From: a virus
Taxonomy: Duplodnaviria > Heunggongvirae > Uroviricota > Caudoviricetes
DNA: 63,256 bases
Virus record (IMG/VR): IMGVR_UViG_3300025575_000276
Direction: 5' to 3' (one strand)
Both the position numbers and the translations under genes were made by a program. The first letter of the stretch is position 1, and every line of letters starts with the position of its first letter. The notes below the pieces were generated by a model that worked only from the letters and a program-made list of their open reading frames with translations, was not told where the DNA came from and did no database searches. Shown here piece by piece: positions 1-15,200 of this stretch.

Positions 1-1455
1 ATGCCAAGTTTTAGATTAAAAAGGCCAAATTCTACTACCGATACGGCCATAAAAATGTACTGTTACCTTTATGGTAGGATAATAGCAATCTATACAGGAA
101 AGACAATACACCCTGATTTCTGGATAAAAGAGGATCAACGTGCTACTGAAAATAAGAAGAAATTTTTAAAAGGTAGAGCAATTAATTTTGAACTGGGTAG
201 GTTAGATAGGATTGCTTCAGATTTGATATCTAAAATCCAAAAAGAAGATACTTTAATTTCTGACGATAAGTTTAGAGACTTGTTCGAAAAGGAAGCTTTC
301 CCTAAAAGATCTGTACCTAAACCTGCCTTAGAATCAAAGACAAAAACCAAACTTAACCAGAAAGAGCAAATAAAAGTAGCTAAACCTGAGAAGAAGTTAG
401 AGATATCTTCGTTCTTTTCTACTTATGATGATTACTTAAAAGGTCTAAAGGTTTCTGTTGTTAGGAAGAGGCATGTAGTCGGGGTGAGGTGGATGATGCA
501 TAGGTATGAGTTGTATATGAATATGGTTTCCTCCTACCCTTTTGAGTTCTCTATTGATACTATTACTGGAGATATGATTAGGGACTTTGAAGACTTCCTT
601 AAGGTAGAGCATGAACTGTTCGCAGATTTTCCCAAACTTTATGTAAAGACTTCTACTAGAAGTAAAACAAGGAAACCATTGAAACGAGGCCCTAATAGAA
701 TTATCAATATAATGAAAGCATTCAGGTCTTTTATGATTCACTGTATTAACGGTGGCCTAACTGCAAACGATCCATTTAAAAGTAAGATCAAGATTACTAC
801 ACTAAAAGGTAAGGAAGTTAAGACAGTTATTACAGGTTATGAAATTGGATCTGAAAAGTACGGAGATCCAATCTACATAACGATCAAAGAACGCAACTCT
901 TTATATAAGTTCGATTTCACAAAACATCCAGAATCAGAGATACAACGAGACATATTTATTTTCCAATGTCAAATAGGTTGTAGGGTTGGTGACTTGTACG
1001 AATTTACTTATTCAAATATTATCGATGGTGTACTACATTTTGTACCAGGTAAAACCGAGGATGAAAACCCAGCAACAGTAAGCGTACCATTAAATGAAAC
1101 CGCACAGGTGCTTATAAAAAAGTATATGGGTAAAACTGAAAGTGGAAAGTTATTCCCATTTATTCCGAAACAAGAGTATAATGATGCAATAAGATTAATA
1201 TTTAATATGGCAGGTTTAACACGTAAAGTTATGGTAAGGGACAGTGTAACAGAAAAACTAGTAAGCAAATCACTTGATAGTATTGCTTCATCCCACATGG
1301 CAAGGAGAACATTTATTGGAGGGATATACGATAAAATTAAAGACCCAAGTTTAATAGGTTCTATGACCGGCCATAAAGAAGGTAGTAAAGCTTTTAACAG
1401 GTACCGACATATTGATGATAAGATAAAAAGAGACACACTTAAGTTAATGGAATAG
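1..1455 (+). CDS. int: Tyrosine recombinase / phage integrase (Bacteroidota type, N-terminal arm-binding and SAM-like core-binding domains)
   Basis: Catalytic residues are intact and in order: GCRVGDL (R), PGKT (K), SHMARRTF (HxxR), MTGH (H), FNRY (Y). The 484 aa length and N-terminus resemble Bacteroidota mobile-element integrases. Confidence 0.93.
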   Translation: MPSFRLKRPNSTTDTAIKMYCYLYGRIIAIYTGKTIHPDFWIKEDQRATENKKKFLKGRAINFELGRLDRIASDLISKIQKEDTLISDDKFRDLFEKEAFPKRSVPKPALESKTKTKLNQKEQIKVAKPEKKLEISSFFSTYDDYLKGLKVSVVRKRHVVGVRWMMHRYELYMNMVSSYPFEFSIDTITGDMIRDFEDFLKVEHELFADFPKLYVKTSTRSKTRKPLKRGPNRIINIMKAFRSFMIHCINGGLTANDPFKSKIKITTLKGKEVKTVITGYEIGSEKYGDPIYITIKERNSLYKFDFTKHPESEIQRDIFIFQCQIGCRVGDLYEFTYSNIIDGVLHFVPGKTEDENPATVSVPLNETAQVLIKKYMGKTESGKLFPFIPKQEYNDAIRLIFNMAGLTRKVMVRDSVTEKLVSKSLDSIASSHMARRTFIGGIYDKIKDPSLIGSMTGHKEGSKAFNRYRHIDDKIKRDTLKLME

Positions 1456-1496
1456 TGTAGTTTACTAGGATATATTATTTAATTTTCGTATATTAA

Positions 1497-2093
1497 GTGG
1501 AAACACTACTTAATATGCTGACAAAAGAACAATTACAAAAGGCTGCAACTAAGTATAATATTTCATTATCTGCTATACAATCTATAATAGCAGTAGAGTC
1601 AGGTGGATCAGGGTTCCTTCCCGATGGTCGGCCAAAGATTTTATTTGAGGGACACATTTTCTGGAAAGAACTTATAAAGGTAGGTATCGATCCAAATAAG
1701 TTTGTTGCCGGAAATGAGGATGTCTTATATAAGATATGGACAAAGGAGCATTATGTTGGTGGTGCCGGTGAACATGCACGATTGGCTAAGGCTAGCCTGA
1801 TCAACCGGGAGGCAGCCCTTAAGTCTGCCAGTTGGGGCCTGTTTCAGATCATGGGAGGTAATTACATTTCCACTGGCGATAAGACTGTAGTACAATTTGT
1901 ATTAGAGGAATCTGCTTCTGAATTGGAACAACTATACGACTTCCTTAACTTCATTACAAGTACAAATCTGATCAACTACCTTAGAGTAAAAGATTGGGCA
2001 AGGTTCGCAGCCGGATATAATGGCCCGGCATACAAGGCGAATAGTTATGATACTAAACTCCAGAATTACGACAATAAGTTTTCAGCAGCTTAA
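1497..2093 (+). CDS. Endolysin, N-acetylmuramidase (DUF3380/PF11860-like)
   Basis: Motifs IIAVESGGSGF, RPKILFEGHIF, SASWGLFQIMGGNY, WARFAAGYNGPAY. Catalytic domain only. The true start may be the in-frame ATG at 1515. Confidence 0.9.
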   Translation: METLLNMLTKEQLQKAATKYNISLSAIQSIIAVESGGSGFLPDGRPKILFEGHIFWKELIKVGIDPNKFVAGNEDVLYKIWTKEHYVGGAGEHARLAKASLINREAALKSASWGLFQIMGGNYISTGDKTVVQFVLEESASELEQLYDFLNFITSTNLINYLRVKDWARFAAGYNGPAYKANSYDTKLQNYDNKFSAA

Positions 2094-2133
2094 AAGAAAA
2101 AACCCTCAGAATTTATCAGAGGGTTTTTCTTTT
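2092..2133. terminator. Bidirectional rho-independent terminator
   Basis: Stem AAAAACCCTC (2098-2107) / GAGGGTTTTT (2119-2128) with A and T tracts, lying between convergent genes. Confidence 0.75.
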
Positions 2134-2141
2134 CATTTGTT

Positions 2142-2354
2142 CTATCCAGCAACCTGTAGCCTTAGCATAGTCTTCAAACTTTTTGAGTGCTTCGTCTCTT
2201 CCACCCAACTCATAACCATATCTGTCTGCTCTTTTGCCTGTTCCAAGGACAATGGTTGCTTCAACATTTCTGACACCTCCTTCACTCCTTCCTTGTTCTT
2301 CCTTCGGGAGTAGTCGTTTAAGAGTTCTGGTTCCTTCGATGCCTTTTTCTTCAT
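2142..2354 (-). CDS. Small hypothetical protein (70 aa, charged)
   Basis: ATG start with an AT-rich leader, ends next to the terminator. No recognisable motif. Confidence 0.5.
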   Translation of the reverse strand: MKKKASKEPELLNDYSRRKNKEGVKEVSEMLKQPLSLEQAKEQTDMVMSWVEETKHSKSLKTMLRLQVAG

Positions 2355-2488
2355 AATTTTAGTTCTATTGAATTCAATTTCAAATACAACGTTTGATCTA
2401 TAAAATTAGAAATAAAAACTTTACAGAAGAAAAGAAATTCAATTTCGTTTCATAATGAATGTTCTTGTGATGCTAGTTAATTCACTGA

Positions 2489-2551
2489 ATGAATGGGGGA
2501 GTTCACGACCGGTTCAGGGAGGATTGGCTGAAATGTCCATGCCTACTCGAC
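2489..2551 (+). mobile_element. Degenerate group II intron 3' end (partial domain V plus domain VI)
   Basis: ATGAATGGGGGAGTTCACGACCGGTTC-AGGGAGGATTGGCTGAAATGTCCATGCCTACTCGAC. The DVI stem GGGAGG/CCT-A-CTC has a bulged A 7 nt from the end, a GAAA loop and a terminal AC. The 5' strand of DV (catalytic triad) is missing. Confidence 0.6.
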
Positions 2552-2595
2552 CCCCATATTTCCCTCAAATGCCTCTCTTGTACCCAATTTACATT

Positions 2596-4239
2596 CTATT
2601 TATGTTGAAAAAGCCTGATTACTTTTTTATCAAAATCCAATGCATAAATATCACCTTCTGAAGTTACTGCCAAATCGGGTGCTACCTCTTCATCAGGAAA
2701 CTTTTCTGATGGAGCTACGACACTGTTGAACTCCCCGGATGGTTTATACACTTTTATCCTTACATTATTTTTCTCACTCGTTACAAACGAACCATCTGGC
2801 AAAAATGCTATATGGGCGGGATTGCAACATCCCCAAAATCCTTCTATTCCTTCTTCGTCATTCGTCCAGAAGGTCCGGAATGTTCCTGAATCCTGATATT
2901 GCTCCAATGCACGCTTTCCGGGATTTACAACCCAGAGTTCTCCATCGTGGTTAAAGGCAAGATCAAAATAGGGACTTGGAACAATGAACCAATGTGTGTC
3001 GTCTTTGCTCGCTTTCCCTTCAAATGCATCCAGATATTTTCCAGCAGTAGAATATCTGATTACTCTTCTGTTTCCTGCATCTGCTGCAAAAAGAAGTTTC
3101 CCTTTCACGGCTAAAGATGTGAGAAACGTTTTTTTATCAAGTGGTGTCCAACTACCGGTTAGTTTACCTGAAAGATCATATCCGGCAACGAAATTGGTGA
3201 AACCAATAAAAATATTCTTGTCGGTCACGGTTATGCAGGTAGGCGAAGCAGGCAATTTTGTTTTGATCACTTCTTTGCCATCAACTGTTATTACCTGTAA
3301 CAGGCTATCTGATATGATGTAGAGTTTTTGGTTGGCATAGGCCAGTCCTTTCGGGGTTTGGGTATTGAGCCTGATGTTTTTTGTCTCTTTATAATGAACC
3401 TTTGTCGAGTCAGTAGATTTGAATTTGACAACATTGTATCCATAAGGATTGACAGCCCTGTTCTCCTGATTACCTATATCCGTTTTATTGTCGGCTGATA
3501 CCGGTATCCTATTGACGATTGCCCTATATGGAGAGAAATTAAATAACTTATCAAAATCATTCTTTTTTAATTCAAAATAATTGTTGGTAAGAGGTAAAGT
3601 GGTAGAATTATTTCTATCCCAAGGAAGAATATTAAATCTTACAATCTTTTCACCCTTCAAGATTTGAGAATTTATATTAAAGAAACTTTCTCCTTTGCAA
3701 ATATTTGAAGTAGAGTCCGAATCCTTTCCTAAAAGCAAAAGCCTAATCATTCTTTTGTTTTTTATTACTTCTTCGGGATCAAAAGAAAATGGTACTGCAA
3801 GTATTTTATAATAATATTCACAATACTCTATAGGCAAAGCTTTATAGAATTGTCCATCAGCTGTATTTACAATTTTCTTTAATTGCTCTAGGCTATTATT
3901 TGTAAAAGCAAAAACTTTAATTTGAGTAGAATCATATTTTGCCTTCAAAAAATAAAAGATTTTGCCTTCCAATGTAAATTTAAATAATTGAAGTGATTCA
4001 AAGCCAGCATCAGGACAACAAGGCAAATAACTTCTATTTGATGTTAGATCAGATTGTTTCCAAAATTTCTCTTCTTTATTTTCGAACCTAGACCAACCAG
4101 AAATATTTGTGAGTTTCTCAGATTGAGCATCCATGCGTAATTGTAATTTTGGTATTTTTTCATTAACTCTTTCTTGACCATAGGAATGGGAAAAAGAGAT
4201 TAAGCTAATGCATAATAATATGTACAATTTACTTTTCAT
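2596..4239 (-). CDS. Secreted protein with C-terminal NHL-like beta-propeller; apparent chimera
   Basis: Signal peptide MKSKLYILLCISLISFSHSYG. C-terminal repeats (LAVKGKLLFAADAGNRRVIRY, LAFNHDGELWVVNPG, GCCNPAHIAFLPDGSFVTSEK). The 5' half is visibly more AT-rich than the 3' half. Confidence 0.7.
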   Translation of the reverse strand: MKSKLYILLCISLISFSHSYGQERVNEKIPKLQLRMDAQSEKLTNISGWSRFENKEEKFWKQSDLTSNRSYLPCCPDAGFESLQLFKFTLEGKIFYFLKAKYDSTQIKVFAFTNNSLEQLKKIVNTADGQFYKALPIEYCEYYYKILAVPFSFDPEEVIKNKRMIRLLLLGKDSDSTSNICKGESFFNINSQILKGEKIVRFNILPWDRNNSTTLPLTNNYFELKKNDFDKLFNFSPYRAIVNRIPVSADNKTDIGNQENRAVNPYGYNVVKFKSTDSTKVHYKETKNIRLNTQTPKGLAYANQKLYIISDSLLQVITVDGKEVIKTKLPASPTCITVTDKNIFIGFTNFVAGYDLSGKLTGSWTPLDKKTFLTSLAVKGKLLFAADAGNRRVIRYSTAGKYLDAFEGKASKDDTHWFIVPSPYFDLAFNHDGELWVVNPGKRALEQYQDSGTFRTFWTNDEEGIEGFWGCCNPAHIAFLPDGSFVTSEKNNVRIKVYKPSGEFNSVVAPSEKFPDEEVAPDLAVTSEGDIYALDFDKKVIRLFQHK

Positions 4240-4325
4240 ATCAATTTTTTTTTAATTAATAATAGAGTTGTGATCTATAAATACAAATGCACAATTATGG
4301 TTGTCAAAATAATTTGAAAATATAA

Positions 4326-5186
4326 TTATAAACCTTTCAATTTCTCCTCTAATTCTGCTTTTTTCTCCTCTAATTCTGCTTTTTTCTTTTCATTTATGAT
4401 TTCTGCTTTTACAATAGAATCCTTTTCAGCTTGTGTATTTTTTTTTAAAGAATAAAAGACATCTCGTCCAACAAGGAAATAATTGGGTTTATTATTTCCC
4501 ATCGTCAAGATATTTAACGTACCTAAATAAGAAACTAATTTTTCAGAGGGATATTTAAGTAATAATTCCTTATTAAAACGCAAAAAAAGTTCAGTTCCAA
4601 TACCCGTTTTATCTGAATATAAGGGTGATTTTTGAATTGGACCTTCCAAGTATATTTTAATATTCGCAATTGACCCATCAATTGCAGGAGATATTTCATA
4701 TGTCCCAATTGCTCTACTTAATTCTATACCATTATTGGTTAGTACGCGAAAAGTGAAGAGAGTATCATTAAAATTAAAAACTATTATCGATTCTTGGTTT
4801 GTTGCCGTATAGAAAGCATTTGACATTAGAATTTCTTTTGTCTGAGCTATTAATTTGTCTTCCAAAGGGTTGGGTGGTTCTGCTTCATCAACAACCTCCT
4901 CTGGTTTATTACTTATTTCATTGTAAATCTTTTTATATAAGGCGCCAAATTTGAGTCCTCCTCCATCTAGGGGATACTTTTTCTGAAATTCATCAATAAG
5001 TGTTTTTAATTCTGTGCCAAGTTTTTCGGATTCAGGTAAAAGTGATTTATCTCCTGATTCAATTTTCTTTTGGATTTGAACTGCTTTCAAAGTTAGTTCT
5101 GCAAGCTCTCTTGCATCTTTTTGCATTTCGTTTTCCCCACAGCTCATAAGGATGAGAACAATAGCAAATAATAAAAAGTTTTTCAT
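4326..5186 (-). CDS. Predicted lipoprotein of unknown function
   Basis: Lipoprotein signal MKNFLLFAIVLILMS-C followed by charged residues. Coiled-coil C-terminus. Confidence 0.7.
   Translation of the reverse strand: MKNFLLFAIVLILMSCGENEMQKDARELAELTLKAVQIQKKIESGDKSLLPESEKLGTELKTLIDEFQKKYPLDGGGLKFGALYKKIYNEISNKPEEVVDEAEPPNPLEDKLIAQTKEILMSNAFYTATNQESIIVFNFNDTLFTFRVLTNNGIELSRAIGTYEISPAIDGSIANIKIYLEGPIQKSPLYSDKTGIGTELFLRFNKELLLKYPSEKLVSYLGTLNILTMGNNKPNYFLVGRDVFYSLKKNTQAEKDSIVKAEIINEKKKAELEEKKAELEEKLKGL
4341..4382. repeat. Perfect 21-bp tandem duplication (KKAELEE x2)
   Basis: TTTCTCCTCTAATTCTGCTTT occurs at 4341-4361 and 4362-4382. Confidence 0.9.
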
Positions 5187-5329
5187 AAAACTAGATTATC
5201 GCCTATTTGTTTAAGTGTCCAATTTAAAGTCAGGTCTGAAAAATAAGCTTAATGGGATATGTTTTAGCCCCGAATAGATTAGAAAGTATATCTTCAAACC
5301 AAAGTGCATTTTTTTGTTTCATAGCTTAA

Positions 5330-5337
5330 CAAATGTA
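5330..5337 (-). promoter_or_regulatory. Bacteroidota sigma70 -7 element (TAnnTTTG)
   Basis: TACATTTG on the minus strand, about 145 bp upstream of the lipoprotein start. Confidence 0.45.
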
Positions 5338-5727
5338 AATATATAAATCCAGAAGTCAATTATTTTATTTTTTTAGAGGTATTTTTTTGGAAAGTATTGT
5401 TTCAAGAATTGAGCAGCTTCTAACTCTTTGATATAAATATCATATATAATTGTATGTCAACATAATATGATTATATAAAAAATAATAAAATGATTTTTAC
5501 CCATCCTTGGATATCAATATCGTATAATTTATTTAAAATCCATTGAAAAAAATGTTATACCATCAATATATGGATGATTTCTGCAATCTGAATATGTTCT
5601 TTAGTTCCCTTTCTCAATAATAAATAAGGTAAAGACAATCAATCAGAAACTTGATGCGCTTATAAATAATTTTGTGAATGGATAACTTTCATTCGGAAAT
5701 TTATTAGTTTTACAAAAAACAACAACT

Positions 5728-5982
5728 ATGAACCCTGATGTAATAGCACAAAAAGCCATCGAAAAATTAAATAAAAAAATCACAAATGAAGTTTTTCTGA
5801 TTATTCAAAGCGACAAAGATCTTATGTACAACTACCTAAAGGCTGTTGAAGAGAAAGGTTTAGATGTTGTTAATCAAGCAATTGGATTTGAAGTAAAAAA
5901 ACAATATAAATTGGTAAACATTAACGACCGGGAAGAAAATCCTTCTTGCACATTAATTAAAAGCCATCAAAAATTTGAATAA
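5728..5982 (+). CDS. Small hypothetical protein (84 aa)
   Basis: ATG preceded by an A-rich leader (AAAAAACAACAACT) typical of Bacteroidota. Followed by a strong hairpin. Confidence 0.65.
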   Translation: MNPDVIAQKAIEKLNKKITNEVFLIIQSDKDLMYNYLKAVEEKGLDVVNQAIGFEVKKQYKLVNINDREENPSCTLIKSHQKFE

Positions 5983-6025
5983 TTCATTTTGTCTTTTAAC
6001 CCTAAGTACACTATGTCAATAATGG

Positions 6026-6063
6026 AAATGAGAAAAATGGGACCAGCCCCATTTTTCTCATTT
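6026..6063. terminator. Perfect 16-bp hairpin between convergent genes
   Basis: AAATGAGAAAAATGGG-accagc-CCCATTTTTCTCATTT. Confidence 0.6.
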
Positions 6064-6112
6064 TAGCATTTCCATGAAGACATAAAATGAGGTCACCCTT
6101 TTGGGATGGTCT

Positions 6113-6149
6113 CAACGTCAACCCGTCTGACGCAAAACGCATGTTAGCC
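6113..6149 (-). promoter_or_regulatory. attC-like half site (R'' core GGCTAAC plus left arm)
   Basis: Minus strand GGCTAACATGCGTTTTGCGTCAGACGGGTTGACG, 21 nt after the stop of the 262 aa gene. Complementary to GTTAGCC upstream of the same gene. No matching right arm found. Confidence 0.45.
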
Positions 6150-6170
6150 ATTCGCTCTTTCTGATTTTCT

Positions 6171-6959
6171 TCAATACTTATAAAAATATCTTTTCACTAC
6201 ATAATTATAATTTTCTTCGCCTAAGAATTCCTCGTTTTTATTTATGTATTCACTTGCAGATAAAAACCCAAAGTATTCAACCCGTTCATTAACTTTAATA
6301 TCTTTCAAAAATTCATCTACAATTTTTTTAAATTTCGCAATAGTCTCCTTATAGTTCGTCAAGTCCTGCTCAAATCTGGTTGAGAACGGATTATCAAAAC
6401 AAAAACTGTATAGTTTAAACTTCTTGTTAACATATTCCGGCTTATTCATGATGTTGATTATTCCAAGAAGATGACTACAAAGCTGCTTCACCCCTCCGCC
6501 ATAGATTTTTTGATCATCAAAACTTTTAATGACCTTTTTCAAAAACTTAATAAAGGGGTCTGAAATAGCCGGGCACATGTATTGTGTTTTATCAAAGTAT
6601 TTTTCTTTAAAATCAATTTTGCCTAATTGGATTATTTCAAAAGCCTTAACTTCAAATAGTTCAATTGTATTTGTTGTTTCATTATTAAGCTTTACATCAA
6701 TTTGTGCATCTCGGTCGAATACCTCCATGTGAAATTCAAACTCCAAAAGTTTACTGTTCACGCCAGAAAATACATTGTAAGCAAAAGCTTGTGAACTTTT
6801 TAAACTTCCAGCCCACCTGTGATATTCAAACTCTTTGGGTGGAGTGGTTATGAAATTTTTCGTTCTATTCTTAAGAACAAAATTGTGTTTGTTATCTGTA
6901 ATTAAGTTATTCTTAAACCCTTTAACTACAAAATTCTCTATTTCTTTTTTATAATTCAT
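6171..6959 (-). CDS. PD-(D/E)xK restriction-endonuclease-like protein (PGN_0703-like)
   Basis: HRWAGSLKSSQAFAYNVF, then QIDV...LFEVK (D...ExK), then KQLCSHLLGI. No methyltransferase nearby. Confidence 0.6.
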   Translation of the reverse strand: MNYKKEIENFVVKGFKNNLITDNKHNFVLKNRTKNFITTPPKEFEYHRWAGSLKSSQAFAYNVFSGVNSKLLEFEFHMEVFDRDAQIDVKLNNETTNTIELFEVKAFEIIQLGKIDFKEKYFDKTQYMCPAISDPFIKFLKKVIKSFDDQKIYGGGVKQLCSHLLGIINIMNKPEYVNKKFKLYSFCFDNPFSTRFEQDLTNYKETIAKFKKIVDEFLKDIKVNERVEYFGFLSASEYINKNEEFLGEENYNYVVKRYFYKY

Positions 6960-7000
6960 ATTGTTCGGTTTTTGAATTCATCTCGTTTTTTAAGAGTGAC

Positions 7001-7040
7001 GGCTAACTCATATATACGCCTGACAAAATCAGACCTATGC
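7001..7040 (-). promoter_or_regulatory. attI/attC-like R' core (GTTAGCC) at the cassette start
   Basis: Minus strand ...GTCAGGCGTATATATGA-GTTAGCC-GTCA, 41 nt before the ATG of the nuclease gene. Confidence 0.4.
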
Positions 7041-7245
7041 AATGAAATTTGGGTGGATAGGCCTTTTAGATATCAGATTTATCTTGTAAAGATAATATTA
7101 CAAATCATCGAAAGGAGATTTTATTTTCTAAAAACTTTTTTCAGTTACATGTGTGTAAATCTCAGTTGTTTTTGAACTCTTATGTTCCAATAATTCTTGT
7201 ATATACAATAAATATTTTCCAGATTGGAAGAATAATGAGGTCAGC

Positions 7246-7427
7246 GTGTGCTAAGAGAGAGTGTGTTTGTACTGAATTAATGATAGGGAGGCCGTAACTG
7301 GTTTCCGGGAGCAGGCTATAAATACCACAAAACAAATTAATGACTACTTATAACAGAAGCCATATCTCTGCAAATGTTCACCACATGTTCAAAGAGGCTT
7401 GGGTTGAAATGCCTTTGCCTACTCGAC
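7246..7427 (+). mobile_element. Internally deleted (about 182 nt) group II intron remnant retaining both ends
   Basis: Starts GTGTG (GUGYG). Continues ...GTGTTTGTACTGAATTAATGATAGGGAGGCCGTAAC..., resembling a domain I start. Ends AGAGGCTTGGGTTGAAATGCCTTTGCCTACTCGAC, a DVI stem AGAGGC/GCCT-A-CT with bulged A at -7 and AY end. No RT ORF. Confidence 0.6.
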
Positions 7428-7467
7428 CCCCACCTTAAGGGGCAGAACAGCAAAAAAGTTTATTAGT

Positions 7468-7563
7468 ATGACTGATGAAAATTTAATCCATAAGGGAACT
7501 ATTGATTTCTCCAAGCAAATTATTGTAGCATTTAAAATACTTAAGAAAGCAAAAATGCAGTAA
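7468..7563 (+). pseudogene. 31-codon ORF, possible four-helix-bundle protein N-terminal fragment
   Basis: Translates as MTDENLIHKGTIDFSKQIIVAFKILKKAKMQ*. Loosely resembles the start of 23S rRNA-IVP/Avd-like four-helix bundle proteins. Confidence 0.2.
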
Positions 7564-7604
7564 ATGAAAAAAAAACCTCAGAGTAATCTCCGAGGGTTTT
7601 TCAT
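7564..7604. terminator. Rho-independent terminator ending the giant-gene operon
   Basis: TGAAAAAAAAACCTC-AGAGTAATCTCC-GAGGGTTTTTCA immediately past the 1553 aa stop. The long A tract gives a U tract on the minus strand. Confidence 0.75.
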
Positions 7605-7606
7605 TT

Positions 7607-10600
7607 TTATTTGGATTGTTCGGTTACGTACCGTTGAATATCGGTACCCATTTTGAAAGGTCCTAAGAAGGAAGATACTGCCCTCCATCCTTTACTATCA
7701 GCATCCCCATCATCTTTCCATAGTTGGTGTAACCCACTATAAGTATTCCTAGCTACTGATAGCATAGGAAAAGGTGATGCAGTCAATTTGTACATGGACT
7801 GTGCTTGTGCTATCAGGTACGACTCATCGAGAGATCCTGACAACATCATAAATGCCATCGTCTTGTTATCTCCCGGCTTGTTAAACATCGAGGCAACAAT
7901 AGCAGAAAGTCCTCCGATAATGGCAAGAGAGTACGCAGTCTGCATGACAGCTCCCCTCTGATCTGGGTGAAGGTTTTTCCAGTATTCCGCAAACCCTTCC
8001 ATATCTTTGTCTTTTACACAATCATGGAGTTGCATACCCATATCTTTAAGGGTATACCACATACCTTCAAAGTAACCATCCTCATTATGGTAGGTTACTG
8101 TATGGGAAGTTCCGTCCTCATGCATTACTTCCTTTGTTCGTTGTTGGGAGTAATGAGGATTGATCTGTCCTCTTGTAAGCCACTTGTCGAGTTTAGAAGC
8201 TAACCAACCGTTCATCGATCCAAAGGTTCTTCCGATAGCCCACTGTTTATACAGAGCTTGGTCAACCTTATCCATGGAGAAGAATAACATGTTGGCCTTA
8301 TGCTTTAGTTCCATCGATTCTTCCATTGTATAAGGAACTTTCATCGTACCATTTTCACGTAGGAGTCCTTGCTTGGCCATAATTTCTTTTGTCTCAGTAA
8401 GTCGTTTTTTACCATCCGGACCATCAAACCTAGTATCTAAATTCTCATCATACTCCCAAGTATCTCCAACTTTTTTATAAGCTTTAATAGTACCGTCCAT
8501 TTCCATTCTGGCACCAACCATAACAGCCCTATGGAAGTAGTCACCTGCTGTATGGGCGATACTACCAAACTGAGTAAAGTGTCTTGTACCAATCTTAAAA
8601 CGACCATCACCGGATAGTTTTTCTACGTCCTGATCAGCAAGGTTCATATTTGACATGATATCGTGATATAAGGCACCATCACTTCCTTTAGCTGAGGAGA
8701 TCAACTGAAATGCTCTTACGTAAGATTTACCGTAGGCTTTTAAACCGGCAGCATCTCCCCTTCCGTATGCCTTTGCAAGTTCCTCTCCAAAAGTCATAAA
8801 ATGTCCTGCAATCATATTCTTTATTGCGGAACTAAGTCTAAATGATACCATTGAAGATGCAGCCCAACCACCAGCAACAACAAGTGTCTTTTCAAGTGTA
8901 GGATCTCCGACCTGGTGTTCGTCAAACAGGGATCCCTTTACAGCAACATCAAGGTACTTTAAAGTGTTCTTGTAATCATTCCGGTTGTTGTAAGTTTGAC
9001 CACTGGCAATCAAGACTTGGCGTACAGCATGGTACAAAGGAATTAACTTTCTGTTCTCTTCAACCTTAATACTGTTTGCAGTAAGGGTGTCGAGTACACG
9101 TTCTAGGTTAGTCTCAACATAGGACTTTTCAGTAGGGTCAATTACCCATTCACTCTGTTCATTGCGAACAAGTCCCATTCGTTTGTACCTAGTCTCTATA
9201 CTTTTAGACGCCTTTCCTTTTAACTTGAAGAAGTCCGGGATATCCCTACTGTTATGTGTTAGTGCCTCGAAACTTGACTCATAGTTCTGGTACTGACTTA
9301 ACCAACGATCCTTAGCAGCTCCAAGTTTACTCCAGAAACTTTCTCCAGTACCTGTGTCATGGGTCAACTTATATTTCATATTGTTCATACTGGATTTAAG
9401 TAAGGGTATCCACCCTTCTTCCCAATAGTCTTCGAAATGAGTTGCCTGTTCAGGTGTTGCATTTCTCAAGAGGTTCTTTTTTACTTCTGCATTGAATGTC
9501 TCAATGAATTCCTTTTGAACGGAATCAAGGGCATTATATTCAGTAGATCCTTTTGGCCAGAACCTTCCGACAAACCTTTTCTCTGTCTTTTCACTACCAA
9601 GAATTTTAAAATCCCTTTTCTCAAGTAATGGTTCGAACTTAGTAGTTGTATCTCCTAGAGTGTAATTCCTAATTGTGTTCCCGATATTATCCAGTCCATA
9701 AACCTTTGTGAATATCGCTTCCTTCTTTGATAGGTACGAGTTTTTAAACTCGTTCTCAACCATTCTGGAGGCTATCTTCATCCTTTGGATATACTGGTCA
9801 ACAATACCAACTCCTGTCATACCAGCAAGGGAGGCATAAGTTTCTCTTAGTCCACCAATGTCCTGAGCATTCTCAGTATCGTTACGGATGCCATGGTAGT
9901 GTGCAATAGCATTTGCCAGTAACTTATACTCGTAGGTATTCATATACGCCTCTGACTTAACGTCCTCTCCCATAAGTCTTCTCTGAAGAACGTTAAGAAG
10001 TTTTATAACATCATCTCTTTTAGTATCATCTGCAACTAACTTATCCGCCAAATCTCGAACTTGTTTTGGAGACATTGCATCAATATTACCGAATACTTTC
10101 CTGACAAACCCTTCTCCCATGAACGATACAAATTTAGGGTTAACGTCTGTAACATCAACCTTAGGCCTACCTTCTCTTAAAGCTGAACCATGTTCAATCT
10201 CTACACCTGTTTGGTGAGCATTTGCCAAATAGGAGATCAGGAAGGACACTTCATTCTGGTGGTAGTCCTCAGGAATTAGTAGATCGTCTTTGGCCAGAAG
10301 ATCTTTGAACTCCTGAGGGAAGTCTTTTATTGCTGAACCGCCCTCTGTCTTCAGAGACCTTAGAACTTTCAGGTGTTTGAAAATATTGGATAGGCTGTCG
10401 GAAACATACGGATTGTGCGTTTCATAGTTTGTATGGGAGCCAACGATAACATTGCTTATCTTGATGTCTGGAAAGGCCTCCTTTAGTTTCATTGCCATGA
10501 TCCCCATTTTCATAAACCTATCGTTACGATTAGTCCTATCGTACAAACGAATAGTCTGAACACCTTCCTTTACAATGGCATTTTTTACCGTATGTAGTGG

Positions 10601-12268
10601 AACAGAATTACCAAATATGTTTTTGAGTTCTCTGGTGTTAACAGACTTGTCGATAACATCTTCTTTCACTGACTCTCCATCTACAACACTATAAAGTACA
10701 ACACTAGCGAAAGACTTATCATTTGGATCATAATCCCTGAAAACAATTACAGCATCACTACCAAAGTTTTCAAATCCCTTCAAAGTGTTGGCAGCTACTG
10801 CAAAATCAGTTTCATTTAAACCAGATGTGAGTTTATCAAGTTGGAGTTTTCTTTGGGAAGTTTTATCACTCCCAGTATAATCTTTTCGTGATGTCTTGAT
10901 GAAGGAGGATTGACCAAAATTAATGTACTGTGCAAAGTCCTGACCGACATTATCAGACCCGGTGTCTGGAATAAGATCGTAGTATTTTTCAAGTTCTTTT
11001 AAACGTGCAGCATCACCTACTTTTGTTGTGTCCTTTAATGCAACCTGATCTTTAAACCTTACACTTAATCCTGCAATATCATTGTAATGGTGTAGACCAT
11101 TGAAATTTCTTACATAGGTTCTGTTTGCCCTTGCCTTTGAGGAGTTGTCAATAGTTGTACCTAATCCGGTTAGTCTTCCAAGGGAACTAATGTTTAGTGA
11201 TCCCTTAACTTCGATACCACCAACAACATCAGCAACACTTTTATCAAGTGGTATATTTGTACCCACCCATGCTTTGTGTACTGTTGAGAGATTACCAAAA
11301 AAATTAGCATCGTCAATGTCGTATATTACTGGTTTCGATAGGTCACTGATCGTTTTAATTTCTTTACCTGTGCTGTCTCTAAGAGGTTTTCCATCAGCAC
11401 CTAATCTCTTAGTAACATCTCCTTCAAAATCCAACTTAACAAAAAACAGGTGACTCTTATCTACGGTTAGGGAAGGCATATCAAGGTTGGGATCTCCCCT
11501 TCTTAGGAACTCCCTATATATGGTCTGTTGTAAATTGTTACTTCGAGACTTGCTGCTTTCAACTGTACCTTTATCAGCCTCAGCATACTCATGGAGTGAG
11601 AACTTATGGTCATAGGTGTTGATTATTCCATCAGGAGTAACCACAACAATATCCAACGTACCTCCGATACCGTGTGGTGCATTGATGTCTTTAAAAGTCA
11701 TTGGTAAGGTAGATGCTGTCCTGATCTCACTCAACACAACATTTTCCCTCCTATTAGTACCAGGTAGTTTAGGATTGAGTGTTGTTTCGTACAAATCTTC
11801 AAGGTATGTTAGCCATTTTGAAGCCGGTACTTCTAACTCAGATTTGTGAACATCGTCAATATACTTGTAGTCGTTCTTCTTCAGGTCTATGCCTTGTAAA
11901 GGGTGTTTACCTTCATTCATGTTTTTCAACAGAAGGTCAGCCATCCAGTGAAAGTAACTACCTGCATCCCTAGTAGGGTTCTCAGCAGACTCGTCCCCGG
12001 CAGGACCTTTCCATGGGTACATTGCACTTACGATAGTTGAAGTTGGAACAAGTATCTCCTTTTCGCCCTTTACAGTTCGTGAGTATTCATGTAGTCCCTC
12101 GTCAAAATTGATTGCTGCATGGTTCTTGAGAAGAGCAGCGACTATCTCTTTTTGATCGGCAAGAGTCTTACCGCTAAACCTTACACCCAGAGAGTTCCCC
12201 AGAATGTAATCGTCCAAGTCCTTTTCGGACTTGAACGTTAAACCTTTGTAATTAAATACACATCCCAT
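7607..12268 (-). CDS. Giant virion-associated (ejected) protein with an N-terminal PD-(D/E)xK nuclease-like domain
   Basis: HGIGGTLDIVVVTPDGIINTYDHKFS motif (about 11601-11675). Third gene of the giant-gene triad typical of crAss-like phages. Helical, partly hydrophobic C-terminus. Confidence 0.65.
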   Translation of the reverse strand: MGCVFNYKGLTFKSEKDLDDYILGNSLGVRFSGKTLADQKEIVAALLKNHAAINFDEGLHEYSRTVKGEKEILVPTSTIVSAMYPWKGPAGDESAENPTRDAGSYFHWMADLLLKNMNEGKHPLQGIDLKKNDYKYIDDVHKSELEVPASKWLTYLEDLYETTLNPKLPGTNRRENVVLSEIRTASTLPMTFKDINAPHGIGGTLDIVVVTPDGIINTYDHKFSLHEYAEADKGTVESSKSRSNNLQQTIYREFLRRGDPNLDMPSLTVDKSHLFFVKLDFEGDVTKRLGADGKPLRDSTGKEIKTISDLSKPVIYDIDDANFFGNLSTVHKAWVGTNIPLDKSVADVVGGIEVKGSLNISSLGRLTGLGTTIDNSSKARANRTYVRNFNGLHHYNDIAGLSVRFKDQVALKDTTKVGDAARLKELEKYYDLIPDTGSDNVGQDFAQYINFGQSSFIKTSRKDYTGSDKTSQRKLQLDKLTSGLNETDFAVAANTLKGFENFGSDAVIVFRDYDPNDKSFASVVLYSVVDGESVKEDVIDKSVNTRELKNIFGNSVPLHTVKNAIVKEGVQTIRLYDRTNRNDRFMKMGIMAMKLKEAFPDIKISNVIVGSHTNYETHNPYVSDSLSNIFKHLKVLRSLKTEGGSAIKDFPQEFKDLLAKDDLLIPEDYHQNEVSFLISYLANAHQTGVEIEHGSALREGRPKVDVTDVNPKFVSFMGEGFVRKVFGNIDAMSPKQVRDLADKLVADDTKRDDVIKLLNVLQRRLMGEDVKSEAYMNTYEYKLLANAIAHYHGIRNDTENAQDIGGLRETYASLAGMTGVGIVDQYIQRMKIASRMVENEFKNSYLSKKEAIFTKVYGLDNIGNTIRNYTLGDTTTKFEPLLEKRDFKILGSEKTEKRFVGRFWPKGSTEYNALDSVQKEFIETFNAEVKKNLLRNATPEQATHFEDYWEEGWIPLLKSSMNNMKYKLTHDTGTGESFWSKLGAAKDRWLSQYQNYESSFEALTHNSRDIPDFFKLKGKASKSIETRYKRMGLVRNEQSEWVIDPTEKSYVETNLERVLDTLTANSIKVEENRKLIPLYHAVRQVLIASGQTYNNRNDYKNTLKYLDVAVKGSLFDEHQVGDPTLEKTLVVAGGWAASSMVSFRLSSAIKNMIAGHFMTFGEELAKAYGRGDAAGLKAYGKSYVRAFQLISSAKGSDGALYHDIMSNMNLADQDVEKLSGDGRFKIGTRHFTQFGSIAHTAGDYFHRAVMVGARMEMDGTIKAYKKVGDTWEYDENLDTRFDGPDGKKRLTETKEIMAKQGLLRENGTMKVPYTMEESMELKHKANMLFFSMDKVDQALYKQWAIGRTFGSMNGWLASKLDKWLTRGQINPHYSQQRTKEVMHEDGTSHTVTYHNEDGYFEGMWYTLKDMGMQLHDCVKDKDMEGFAEYWKNLHPDQRGAVMQTAYSLAIIGGLSAIVASMFNKPGDNKTMAFMMLSGSLDESYLIAQAQSMYKLTASPFPMLSVARNTYSGLHQLWKDDGDADSKGWRAVSSFLGPFKMGTDIQRYVTEQSK

Positions 12269-12269
12269 A

Positions 12270-15200
12270 TTAACACTTTTTTTCTAAAGTTTTACTTTTA
12301 TACATTCTATCTTTAATGCTCTGGAGTTTTTCATTCAGATACCCAGTACCATAAAGGTCACTAAGGTCTTCCCTATTGGCTGAAGTAAGGTTGTCGAAAT
12401 AGCCTGAGAGTTTGCCACCGTCAATCATTTCCTTTGCAAGTTTAGCTACTGACATCTCAGCAGTTGCACCAGGAGAAAGTAACGATAATTTCTCAGAAAT
12501 CCAATTCAAATATGCATTTTGATTGCCTAACATGTCAAATGTTCCATCAGAGGATTCTCCAACCCATTCTGCAAATGCTTCTTCACCGACTATCTCAGGA
12601 GAGTACTCTGGGTGTTCTGCTTGGATCCGTTTACCTTGTTCAGTCTTGGCCCATGTATCTACTATCCTAGAGTAAAGTTCTGGTTTAGCCGGTTTTATTG
12701 CATTCAACCATACGTGAGATAACTCGTGCATTGGAGTATCTATGGTATTAAGACCGGAGTTGATATAAATAATACCGTCATGTGCAAATCCTTTCTTATC
12801 CAATAAGGATAGTGGAAGGTCTCCATTCAGGATATCCTCATTAGTAATGATGCGAACCTTTACACCGAAGGTGTCTCCTGCAAGCCTAGAGAAGTTTCCA
12901 AGCATCTTACTATTTAAAGTGGATGTCTGACCTACTCGGTTAGTGATCACATGATCAGAAGCATCTGAGACACTTTTAACCAGTGTATACTTTGGTTTAT
13001 TGATATCTGCTTCCTTAGGGAAATACCTACTCGATAGGATGGTTACTTTACCATTTGTCCCGGATATGGCCTTATGGAGTCGAACATTTCGACTCTCTAC
13101 ATCAGGATCTGAAAAGATACTGTCTTCGTGAATGTACAGGTTATCATGTTTTCCTTTAAGTGTGTCAGGAGTTACCGCATATCCGAAGTTGTAATCAGTT
13201 CCAAGTGTACTGAACTTACTGTAGAATGCCTCCATGTTTTGAGCAAGTTCCTTCTCAACTCTAGGAATACCTTTTAACGACTCAAAGTATTTCTTAGCTT
13301 GATCCAGATCCTTAGCATTGATCTCCAAACTATCTGCATCAGCAAGGAAGACTGTCTTTGATTTACCTGAAGAATCCTTGGTCTCTAAAGTAGTTCCAGA
13401 AAGATCTATCTCCTTTTTTAGTGGGGAGATTATAGTCTTAGTGGATTTACGAGCACTTGTCACATGGAAATCTTCTCCGTTTGCATCGGTAAGTACCTCA
13501 CCTTTATGGATAGTGTCCAAATCATTACCGAACATTTTCTTACGAACTTGCTCATTAATAGTATTGGCCTCTTCCTGAGTACCGGCAACTATCTTTGAAG
13601 TTTTTGGATCACCGGAAGTAAACTCATCAACAATATTCGTTTTGTTACTGAACTCTACTCCCTGTCCATTTCCATCAATACTGGACACTCTACTGATAGG
13701 ATCTTCGGAGAACTCATTACTCTCAATACTATCTAAAAGTGATGCTATAGGACTGGATTTAGGCTCTATGTGGTGTTCTACGATAGGTTTCTCTACAGGA
13801 GTTTCCTCTCCATCGAAGTTGGTTTGAGGTACTGGTTTTGTAGATACATCGGGAACCGAAAGAACACTGTCTAAGTTCCCAGTATGACCAAAGACTGTTG
13901 CATATATCTTACCTACTGTCTCAGTAAAGTCATTCCAAACAGATTTTCCAGATCCCTCATAGGGAGAAGGAGTTTCCTTTATGGACTCCTGGTATTTTTT
14001 ATCCGTGAGGGCATCTGATAGGAAGGTCTGAGCAGGAGTGTGTTCTACGGCACTAGCCAGTTCCTCAATATTACTTTTGAACTCCTCGTTGATTTTAAAC
14101 TCAGATTGGGTTGTAGCAGAAGTCAACTCATGGATGAATGCATTCTCTATGTCAAGGGTTGGGGTATTTCCCATAACAAAGAAAGTGTTTGACTCAGGAT
14201 CATACTTACTAACCCACTCATTTTGTATGCCGTGGTCAGAGTTATACTGTCTCATAAAAGGTGAGTCCACCACTTTAACCTGAGACGACTGGATTGTACT
14301 GTCCGCATTATCAAGTATTTTCTCGGCCAGTGATTTATTCTCAGGAGATACTCCAACTTCAGAATACTTCTCGATAAAATTTGAAGTGCCTGTAACTATA
14401 TCGTCTGCAAAGTAAGTGTCTTTAAATCCTTGGTTAAAAGGAGCTAAAGGACTTTCATAAGTACCACTATCAACTCCCTGACGACCTTCTGGAGCCTGTA
14501 CGAAACTACCATAACCCGGCATTGCAATAGGTGTTTTCCCATCAACGTCATAACCAGTTGCTGTGTGTCCTGCTGTGAAGATTTTCAAAGGCTTATCAAC
14601 AGACGAGAATACAGGTTTTGGAAGTGAGTTTATCGTTTCCTTCTTAGCATTAGCAACGGCCTCTTTAGATCTTTTTAGTAGGAACTCATTAAATCCATTT
14701 TCAGTTTTAGCCGGGGCAGGATTGATAACAACCTCACCTTTGGCCCAACGTGGATCAGAGTAGATCGAATTGTCAAAGGTTCCAGTTTTAAACGACTGAT
14801 AGGCATGTTCTACAGAGTAAAATAACTTGTTGTTCTTATCTATGAACTTGTTGACTTCAGCATTTTCAGGAGATAACGTTCTACCTGTTTCATCTTCTGT
14901 AGTTACCTTTTTAGGAACTTCAGGTGTAACTTCTTTGGGTTTCACAACTTCAAATTCAACAGCATACTCAAGACCCGGACTAAGTTTACCGAAACCATTT
15001 GCGGACCAACCTTCTTTATGCCAGTTAGCCTCAAACCTTGGATCAGATTTATCATAGACAGCAGTTACCCTTGTGAGGATAGACTTAGTAGTTCCATTAA
15101 CACTCTTACCAAACTGGTGAATGTAGGTACCAGGTTTAAGATCGTAACGATCCTCACCGTCCTCTCCCTCGATTTTACCATACTTGGCTATTTCCTTACC

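Follow-up and report, generated by a model that had tools for sequence, protein, structure and literature searches.

The 28-nt direct repeat and its setting

The stretch of DNA analysed here (the window) comprises 63,256 nucleotides (nt) of IMG/VR record IMGVR_UViG_3300025575_000276 and represents the left portion of a crAss-like prophage, one of whose proteins, of 1887 amino acids (aa), matches the Crassvirus muzzle family. The window starts with a tyrosine integrase (1–1455) and, next to it, a muramidase (1497–2093), and a run of giant open reading frames (ORFs) extends over 7607–33851. The interval from the muramidase to the last giant gene holds four uncharacterised genes and forms an accessory island, with the integrase/lysis genes of the prophage on one side and its giant virion genes on the other. 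Within this island, a 28-nt direct repeat is present on the plus strand as copy A (2529–2556) and copy B (7405–7432), which are very probably the surviving 3' tails of two independent, non-functional relics of an endonuclease-minus (En-minus) group II intron lineage.

As originally described, the two copies have the same orientation, are identical at 25 of their 28 positions and share a perfect 17-nt core, TGCCTACTCGACCCCCA. When this core was searched with up to three mismatches, only these two sites were retrieved from the window, against 0.06 expected, and two matches were obtained in none of 100 shuffles. A repeat search lengthened the pair to 31 nt at 87% identity, and pairwise alignment revealed weaker similarity between A and B for ~57 nt upstream of the repeat and none downstream of CCCCA. 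A search of IMG/VR and of 185,579 species genomes gave only chance-level, unrelated matches to the 17-mer, and relaxed motif scans of IMG/VR returned no match. Each copy consists of the loop and 3' strand of intron domain VI (DVI), including the bulged branch-point A and the last six intron bases, followed by five bases of the 3' exon.

Several other explanations of the repeat were rejected. A CRISPR-like solo repeat was considered before the intron parents were known and was then dropped. A template/variable repeat pair of a diversity-generating retroelement was dismissed because the differences between the copies are not A-specific and no reverse transcriptase (RT) is present, paralogous mini-ORFs because an indel breaks the frame, and a duplication reaching into the flanking genes because the corresponding 547-aa and 1553-aa proteins are unrelated.

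Full-length relatives and decay of the window copies

Metagenomes were scanned with the pattern TGAAATNNNNNTGCCTACTCGACNCCC, which yielded 20 loci. In nine of these, a canonical group II intron domain V (DV) is found directly upstream of the motif, with a 5' strand of GAGCCGTAT..., a GAGA loop, a 2-nt bulge and a 3' strand of ...ACGGTTC. These nine loci score 53–67 bits on RF00029 (gathering score of 40), with the model ending exactly at ...CTCGAC, and an RF01999 match lies ~1.75 kb upstream in several of the metagenome loci. Full-length, RT-encoding introns with the ends envisaged by the original prediction were found in metagenome loci L043 and L044. Both are complete 1877-nt introns with a GTGTG 5' end and encode proteins of 421 and 417 aa, respectively, which comprise RVT_1 and GIIM domains, lack an endonuclease domain and reach 396–420 bits on TIGR04416 (cut-off of 300). 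The DV of L043 is intact by folding (−37.8 kcal/mol, z −6.5), and a further locus, L036, is a 646-nt copy without an ORF. The parent protein family is very large, with at least 8000 relatives, all at E ≤ 1e-60; among the matches listed, the named relatives belong to Macellibacteroides, other Bacteroidota and also other phyla. In L044, an OLD-family gene directly follows the intact intron.

An unbiased sample of full-length sister copies (L063–L075) was picked by protein similarity alone, the encoded proteins being 75–85% identical. All of them interrupt IS66 tnpC in sense orientation, between the part encoding the LZ/zinc-finger region and that encoding the DDE region, and the tnpC reading frame stays open across the joined exons. 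The sister copies are conserved up to ...CTCGAC and diverge immediately beyond, with 3' exons that start with TACC, TTCC or AGCC, which identifies CCCCA as exon. The predicted boundary between intron ...GAC and exon CCCCA is thus found at the same place by two routes, namely the end of the Rfam model in the relatives and the end of conservation in the IS66 sister copies.

The same comparison bears on whether the repeat might be the core of an attachment (att) site, or of another site-specific recombination site, bounding an excisable island. The tyrosine integrase 1 kb to the left and the bracketing of low-GC genes by direct repeats would suit such a site, but its probability is negligible: 12 of the 17 core bases belong to the DVI 3' strand, which is conserved in introns at unrelated sites that include the IS66 genes, no tRNA was found in the window, and the 17-mer occurs at chance level in the species genomes searched. 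Likewise, the 2.4 kb that follow the integrase, as contained in L027, yielded no tRNA with ARAGORN.

A covariance model, R1, was built from seven intact metagenome copies only, with a hand-written DV/DVI structure, and was searched with filters off; its E-values are rough because the calibration was shortened. On the window, R1 matched 7351–7427 on the plus strand (34.3 bits, E 8e-7) and 2478–2551 on the plus strand (30.3 bits, E 8.6e-6, model positions 1–79), with the next-best match at E 0.23. Elsewhere, R1 scores were 99–110 bits for intact copies and 27–57 bits for other relics. Rfam returned no Intron_gpII match on the window, neither at the gathering score nor at E ≤ 10. Of the covariance-model support anticipated for both ends, the Rfam part consequently did not materialise, while the lineage model matches both copies and nothing else. 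RF00029 detects the parent copies and is blind to these two decayed tails; such relics escape the standard Rfam model, and a lineage-specific one is needed.

Relic A (2478–2551, plus strand) consists of a decayed DV and a DVI with its bulged A, lacks a 5' end and terminates at the 3' splice site ...GAC. The 3' exon CCCCA, which is the right arm of the target motif, follows at 2552–2556 on the plus strand. In its DV, the 3' strand is recognisable, the catalytic AGC has been lost and the loop is GGGG. L048 contains an orthologue of relic A that shares its flanks (669 nt), and an ~84% copy is found in L035 in an unrelated chromosomal context; overall, relic A is 83–84% identical to the L035 and L048 copies. 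The 484-aa ORF beside the A-like relic in L035 was considered as an integrase and ruled out.

Relic B (7246–7427, plus strand) keeps both intron ends around an internal deletion. All its parts lie on the plus strand. The 5' exon, AATAATGAGGTCAGC (7231–7245), provides the left arm of the target and contains intron-binding site 1 (IBS1), GTCAGC, at 7240–7245. The 5' piece (7246–7323) opens with GTGTG and covers ~78 nt from the beginning of domain I, and the 3' piece (7318–7427) encompasses the end of domain IV, a decayed DV and a DVI with its bulged A, and ends with ...GAC. The 3' exon CCCCA is located at 7428–7432, so that the common flank noticed after both copies is indeed present. The 5' exon and the GTGTG start are the same in L036, L043 and L040. 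With blastn, the 5' piece matches L036 6–41 over 36 nt at 91.7% identity, and with nhmmer its match is weak (E 0.25); the 3' end (~110 nt) was aligned by nhmmer to positions 1763–1875 of the L043 intron.

The proposed DVI with an A bulged at −7 was recovered in both copies, though neither fold is strong, at −11.0 and −11.9 kcal/mol (z −1.6 and −2.4), when compared with that of an intact relative (−20.7 kcal/mol; z −6.5). In both hairpins, the bulged A is that of CCU-A-CUC, 7 nt before ...GAC, and both introns end with GAC. For DV, no fold was obtained in the two window copies (z −0.6 and −0.1). When the L043 and L044 proteins were compared with the window by tblastn, nothing appeared below E ~1, and there was no trace of an RT gene. 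Relics A and B are unable to splice because DV does not fold and the RT gene is absent.

The better preservation of DVI than of DV could alternatively mean that DVI plus the exon arm persisted as a hairpin that had taken on a separate function, for instance as a terminator or as a protein-binding site. Several relics do keep DVI only, and a "perfected" DVI palindrome occurs at three loci, namely L042 ~2678–2730 (equal to L049 ~565–617), L040 2765–2810 and L039 (at 3978; ~4005–4056). Such a role is nevertheless highly improbable, as 5' truncation is expected from incomplete reverse transcription starting at the 3' end, and the weak window hairpins lack a T-run and face the 3' ends of opposite-strand genes. 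In the perfected palindromes, the complementarity of the 5' arm (TGGGGGTCGAGTAGGC) to the 3' strand is exact and extends to the branch A and the exon CCCCA, and these structures may have arisen by snap-back synthesis during incomplete reverse transcription or by hairpin-templated repair.

Target motif and probable independent insertion

Over DV–DVI, relics A and B are identical at only 36 of 72 positions, and each is nearer to other copies than to its counterpart; they are therefore not duplicates of one another. Exon-binding site 1 (EBS1) and IBS1 covary among the relatives: the exon end GTCAGC of L036 corresponds to GCTGAC at intron position 248, and the exon end GTCAGT of L043 to ACTGAC at intron position 247, which is a compensatory change. 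Across the 20 loci, exon position +1 is C in 17 and position +5 is A in 16, and T is conserved at +6 to +7. The divergence between A and B, the EBS1/IBS1 covariation and the exon data fit the first of the two scenarios originally put forward, that of two independent retrohoming events into similar targets.

As reconstructed from the sequences, the putative empty site is a small palindrome, AATGGGGTCAGY/CCCCATT, which was also given in the form AATGGGGTCAGC/CCCCATT. CCCCA marks one target type, which is common to both window relics, and is not generic to the intron. At the level of lineages, it marks one sub-lineage, which would home into AATGGGGTCAGY/CCCCATT, and the sister copies interrupt the IS66 transposase gene instead.

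Some points weigh against the reading of both copies as independently inserted relics. Besides the absence of an Rfam match in the window and the rough E-values of R1, the scan pattern (NCCC) prescribed CCC for +2 to +4 of the exon, and unbiased evidence on the target is therefore limited to +1 and +5 to +7. In addition, relic A has no 5' junction, and its decayed DV recurs in L035, which is at a different locus; relic A may therefore have been brought in as DNA together with a neighbouring segment and not by retrohoming at this place.

Under the preferred reading of two independent insertions, each relic would represent a past retrohoming event on the plus strand into the short palindromic motif, within intergenic DNA of the accessory island. 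Relic B, which has both the 5' junction and the 3' end, would therefore once have been a complete insertion, whose interior (~1.7 kb, including the RT gene) was later lost, and of relic A only the last ~75 nt would remain. The repeat would look direct, and placed "around" the island, because both insertions took the same target type in the same orientation. The analysis shows the homology with genuine introns, the positions of the splice sites, the decay and the divergence of A from B; we infer this order of events, and likewise that the shared target motif is the reason why the relics are found at gene-block boundaries. The crAss-like prophage would thus have been invaded at least two times by a group II intron lineage of its host, which adds to the evidence that phages carry group II introns (PMC12350094). 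For the annotation of the island, the ideas of an att-like repeat and of an excisable 4.9-kb unit are removed.

Unoccupied look-alikes of the target are found near intron copies and at window positions 6028–6061. The latter, located between the 84-aa ORF and the nuclease gene of the island, is a palindrome with 14-bp arms (ATGAGAAAAATGGG-ACCAG-CCCCATTTTTCTCAT), which has the look of a bidirectional terminator and is similar to an empty intron target; AATGAGGTCACCC is found a second time at ~6086–6100. Immediately beyond the window edge, on the upstream side of the integrase start, L027 22340–22580 contains four direct GACCCC(A/G)A repeats within ~230 nt, which are candidate arm-type integrase sites and have the TGACCCCA half of the intron target motif.

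In the fetched loci, the motif TTAATGGGGTCAGGCACNATTAATT and its complement recur every 1.2–1.7 kb between blocks of one or two genes (L049 685–5060, L042 899–940, L038 1932 and 2899), and 19 such half-motifs were counted in ~110 kb, against ~1 expected. Such a recurrence is reminiscent of a cassette array or of a REP-like family, and the motif is likely the natural target of the intron sub-lineage. A more far-reaching proposal, which we regard as decidedly unlikely, is that AATGGGGTCAGY/CCCCATT delimits mobile gene blocks in these Bacteroidota, whether as a terminator-like element or as a site of recombination, and that the sub-lineage homes specifically into it. Relics would then tag cassette junctions, and full-length introns would have provided the homology for swapping cargo in the accessory locus of a temperate crAss-like phage.

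Island limits, related systems and island genes

A 51%-identical relative (L024–L026) has the giant gene, 70 nt and then the muramidase, without the island and without the repeat. By comparison with L024, the island limits are ~2094–7606, with both repeat copies inside. No relatives of the giant protein and none of the integrase were found in IMG/VR, and megablast of window positions 1–12500 against phage records gave no match.

The second scenario originally put forward took the relics for recombination anchors through which the ~4.9 kb between them was captured, or can be excised. No excised or deleted variant was seen among related contigs and perfect identity is restricted to 17 nt; such anchoring is unlikely to operate today, and present-day excision of the 4.9 kb is unlikely. 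In a historical form, which is compatible with the relic reading though doubtful, the introns would have acted as portable homology when full length (~1.9 kb), cargo would have been captured or swapped by homologous recombination, and the relics would have been left from the flanking copies. The literature ties rearrangements to intron copies and remnants (PMC5894124, PMC4181065), and a 92% relative (L021–L023, L040) has a response-regulator fragment and a hybrid sensor kinase as cargo. The homology of this relative to the window starts inside DVI, at ~7396–7400 within relic B, and its kinase (L021/L040) is flanked by intron sequence, with a 5' piece and an inverted copy of DVI to one side of it and a palindromised copy of DVI to the other. 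Intron sequence therefore contains at least one of the mosaic breakpoints, which fits recombination between introns but is no proof of it. Conversely, the island limits defined by L024 are off the relics, the L048 breakpoint is at 2205 and not at relic A, the shift in GC content is near 3500 and inside a gene, the two relics today share perfect identity over 17 nt only, and all contigs with an identical giant gene or muramidase have the same island, as far as each reaches.

Tn3-like terminal inverted repeats of a cargo transposon were also considered for the L021 kinase and rejected, as it has inverted copies and no target duplication; leftward extension of this contig found no longer one. In L048, the muramidase and integrase of the window are replaced by a Gabija-like pair (2–2682), which adjoins the relic A orthologue on its left and consists of a GajA-like 604-aa protein (AAA_15 plus OLD-TOPRIM) and a UvrD helicase.

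Class C ribozymes are ~400–450 nt long, with an EBS1 of 3–4 nt. Among solved structures, those nearest to the L043 and L044 proteins are class C RTs, but the non-coding RNA of the parent is ~610–646 nt (L043, L036), its covarying EBS1/IBS1 is 6 nt long and sister copies home site-specifically into IS66 tnpC; RNA and EBS1 are too long for class C. En-minus introns of classes C–F and their target preferences have been reviewed (PMC4424553). Like the RmInt1-like class D introns (PMC5894124) and the other En-minus introns of classes C–F (PMC4424553), the parents, which are ~1.88 kb long, encode a protein of ~420 aa that comprises RT plus maturase only, pair EBS1 with IBS1 over 6 nt and include a sub-lineage whose target is the transposase gene of an insertion sequence (IS66). 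The class C target is placed just after a terminator hairpin or within attC (PMC4424553), and class C-attC introns are treated in connection with cassette formation by Leon and Roy 2009 and Quiroga et al. 2008, as relayed in PMC4424553. To the extent described in that review, class C-attC introns likewise use a small palindrome located where gene blocks of mobile accessory DNA meet; the motif identified here, however, is no demonstrated attC, insertion takes place between the loop and the 3' arm, and the intron departs from class C in the features given above.

Intergenic and accessory DNA is well known to contain fragmented group II introns, which have been tied to rearrangements (PMC4181065, PMC5894124). 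Like FRE652, a remnant of RmInt1 in Sinorhizobium, the window relics are non-functional pieces of an En-minus intron in rearranging intergenic or accessory DNA (PMC4181065, PMC5894124). They differ in that RmInt1-type decay usually loses the 3' terminus (PMC4181065, PMC5894124), whereas it is the 3' terminus that survives here, and in that the host is an integrated crAss-like phage. Phage group II introns were reported only in 2025, as RF00029 matches (PMC12350094). As in those phages, the genome of a phage was entered by a group II intron lineage, which most plausibly came from the bacterial host during lysogeny. The reported phage introns have E < 0.01 to RF00029, a D5/D6 model (PMC12350094), in contrast to the window relics, which are undetected by it and lie in intergenic accessory DNA. 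What is new here is that a crAss-like prophage has two decayed, RF00029-invisible intron tails in its accessory island; the kind itself is known, and they are otherwise ordinary mobile-element debris in an unusual host.

The island core between the relics (2596–6959) encodes a secreted NHL-repeat protein (2596–4239), a 286-aa ORF (4326–5186) and a 262-aa nuclease-like ORF (6171–6959) on the minus strand and an 84-aa ORF (5728–5982) on the plus strand; these genes gave no PADLOC match and no PHROG match. The GC content is 0.27–0.34 over ~3500–7000, compared with ~0.40 elsewhere. The gene of the NHL-repeat protein is compositionally chimeric, with a GC content of ~0.42 in the C-terminal propeller half (2596 to ~3500) and ~0.28 in the N-terminal half.

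Homologues of the nuclease-like protein (82–88% identical) are found in unrelated contexts, namely beside cytochrome bd genes, beside a phage terminase and within a WYL/AAA/REase-ARP cluster, and no intron relic adjoins the gene at these loci. Nucleotide similarity with the homologous loci ends near GTTAGCC (6143–6149) and GGCTAAC (7001–7007), so that the nuclease gene behaves as a single-gene cassette with defined ends.

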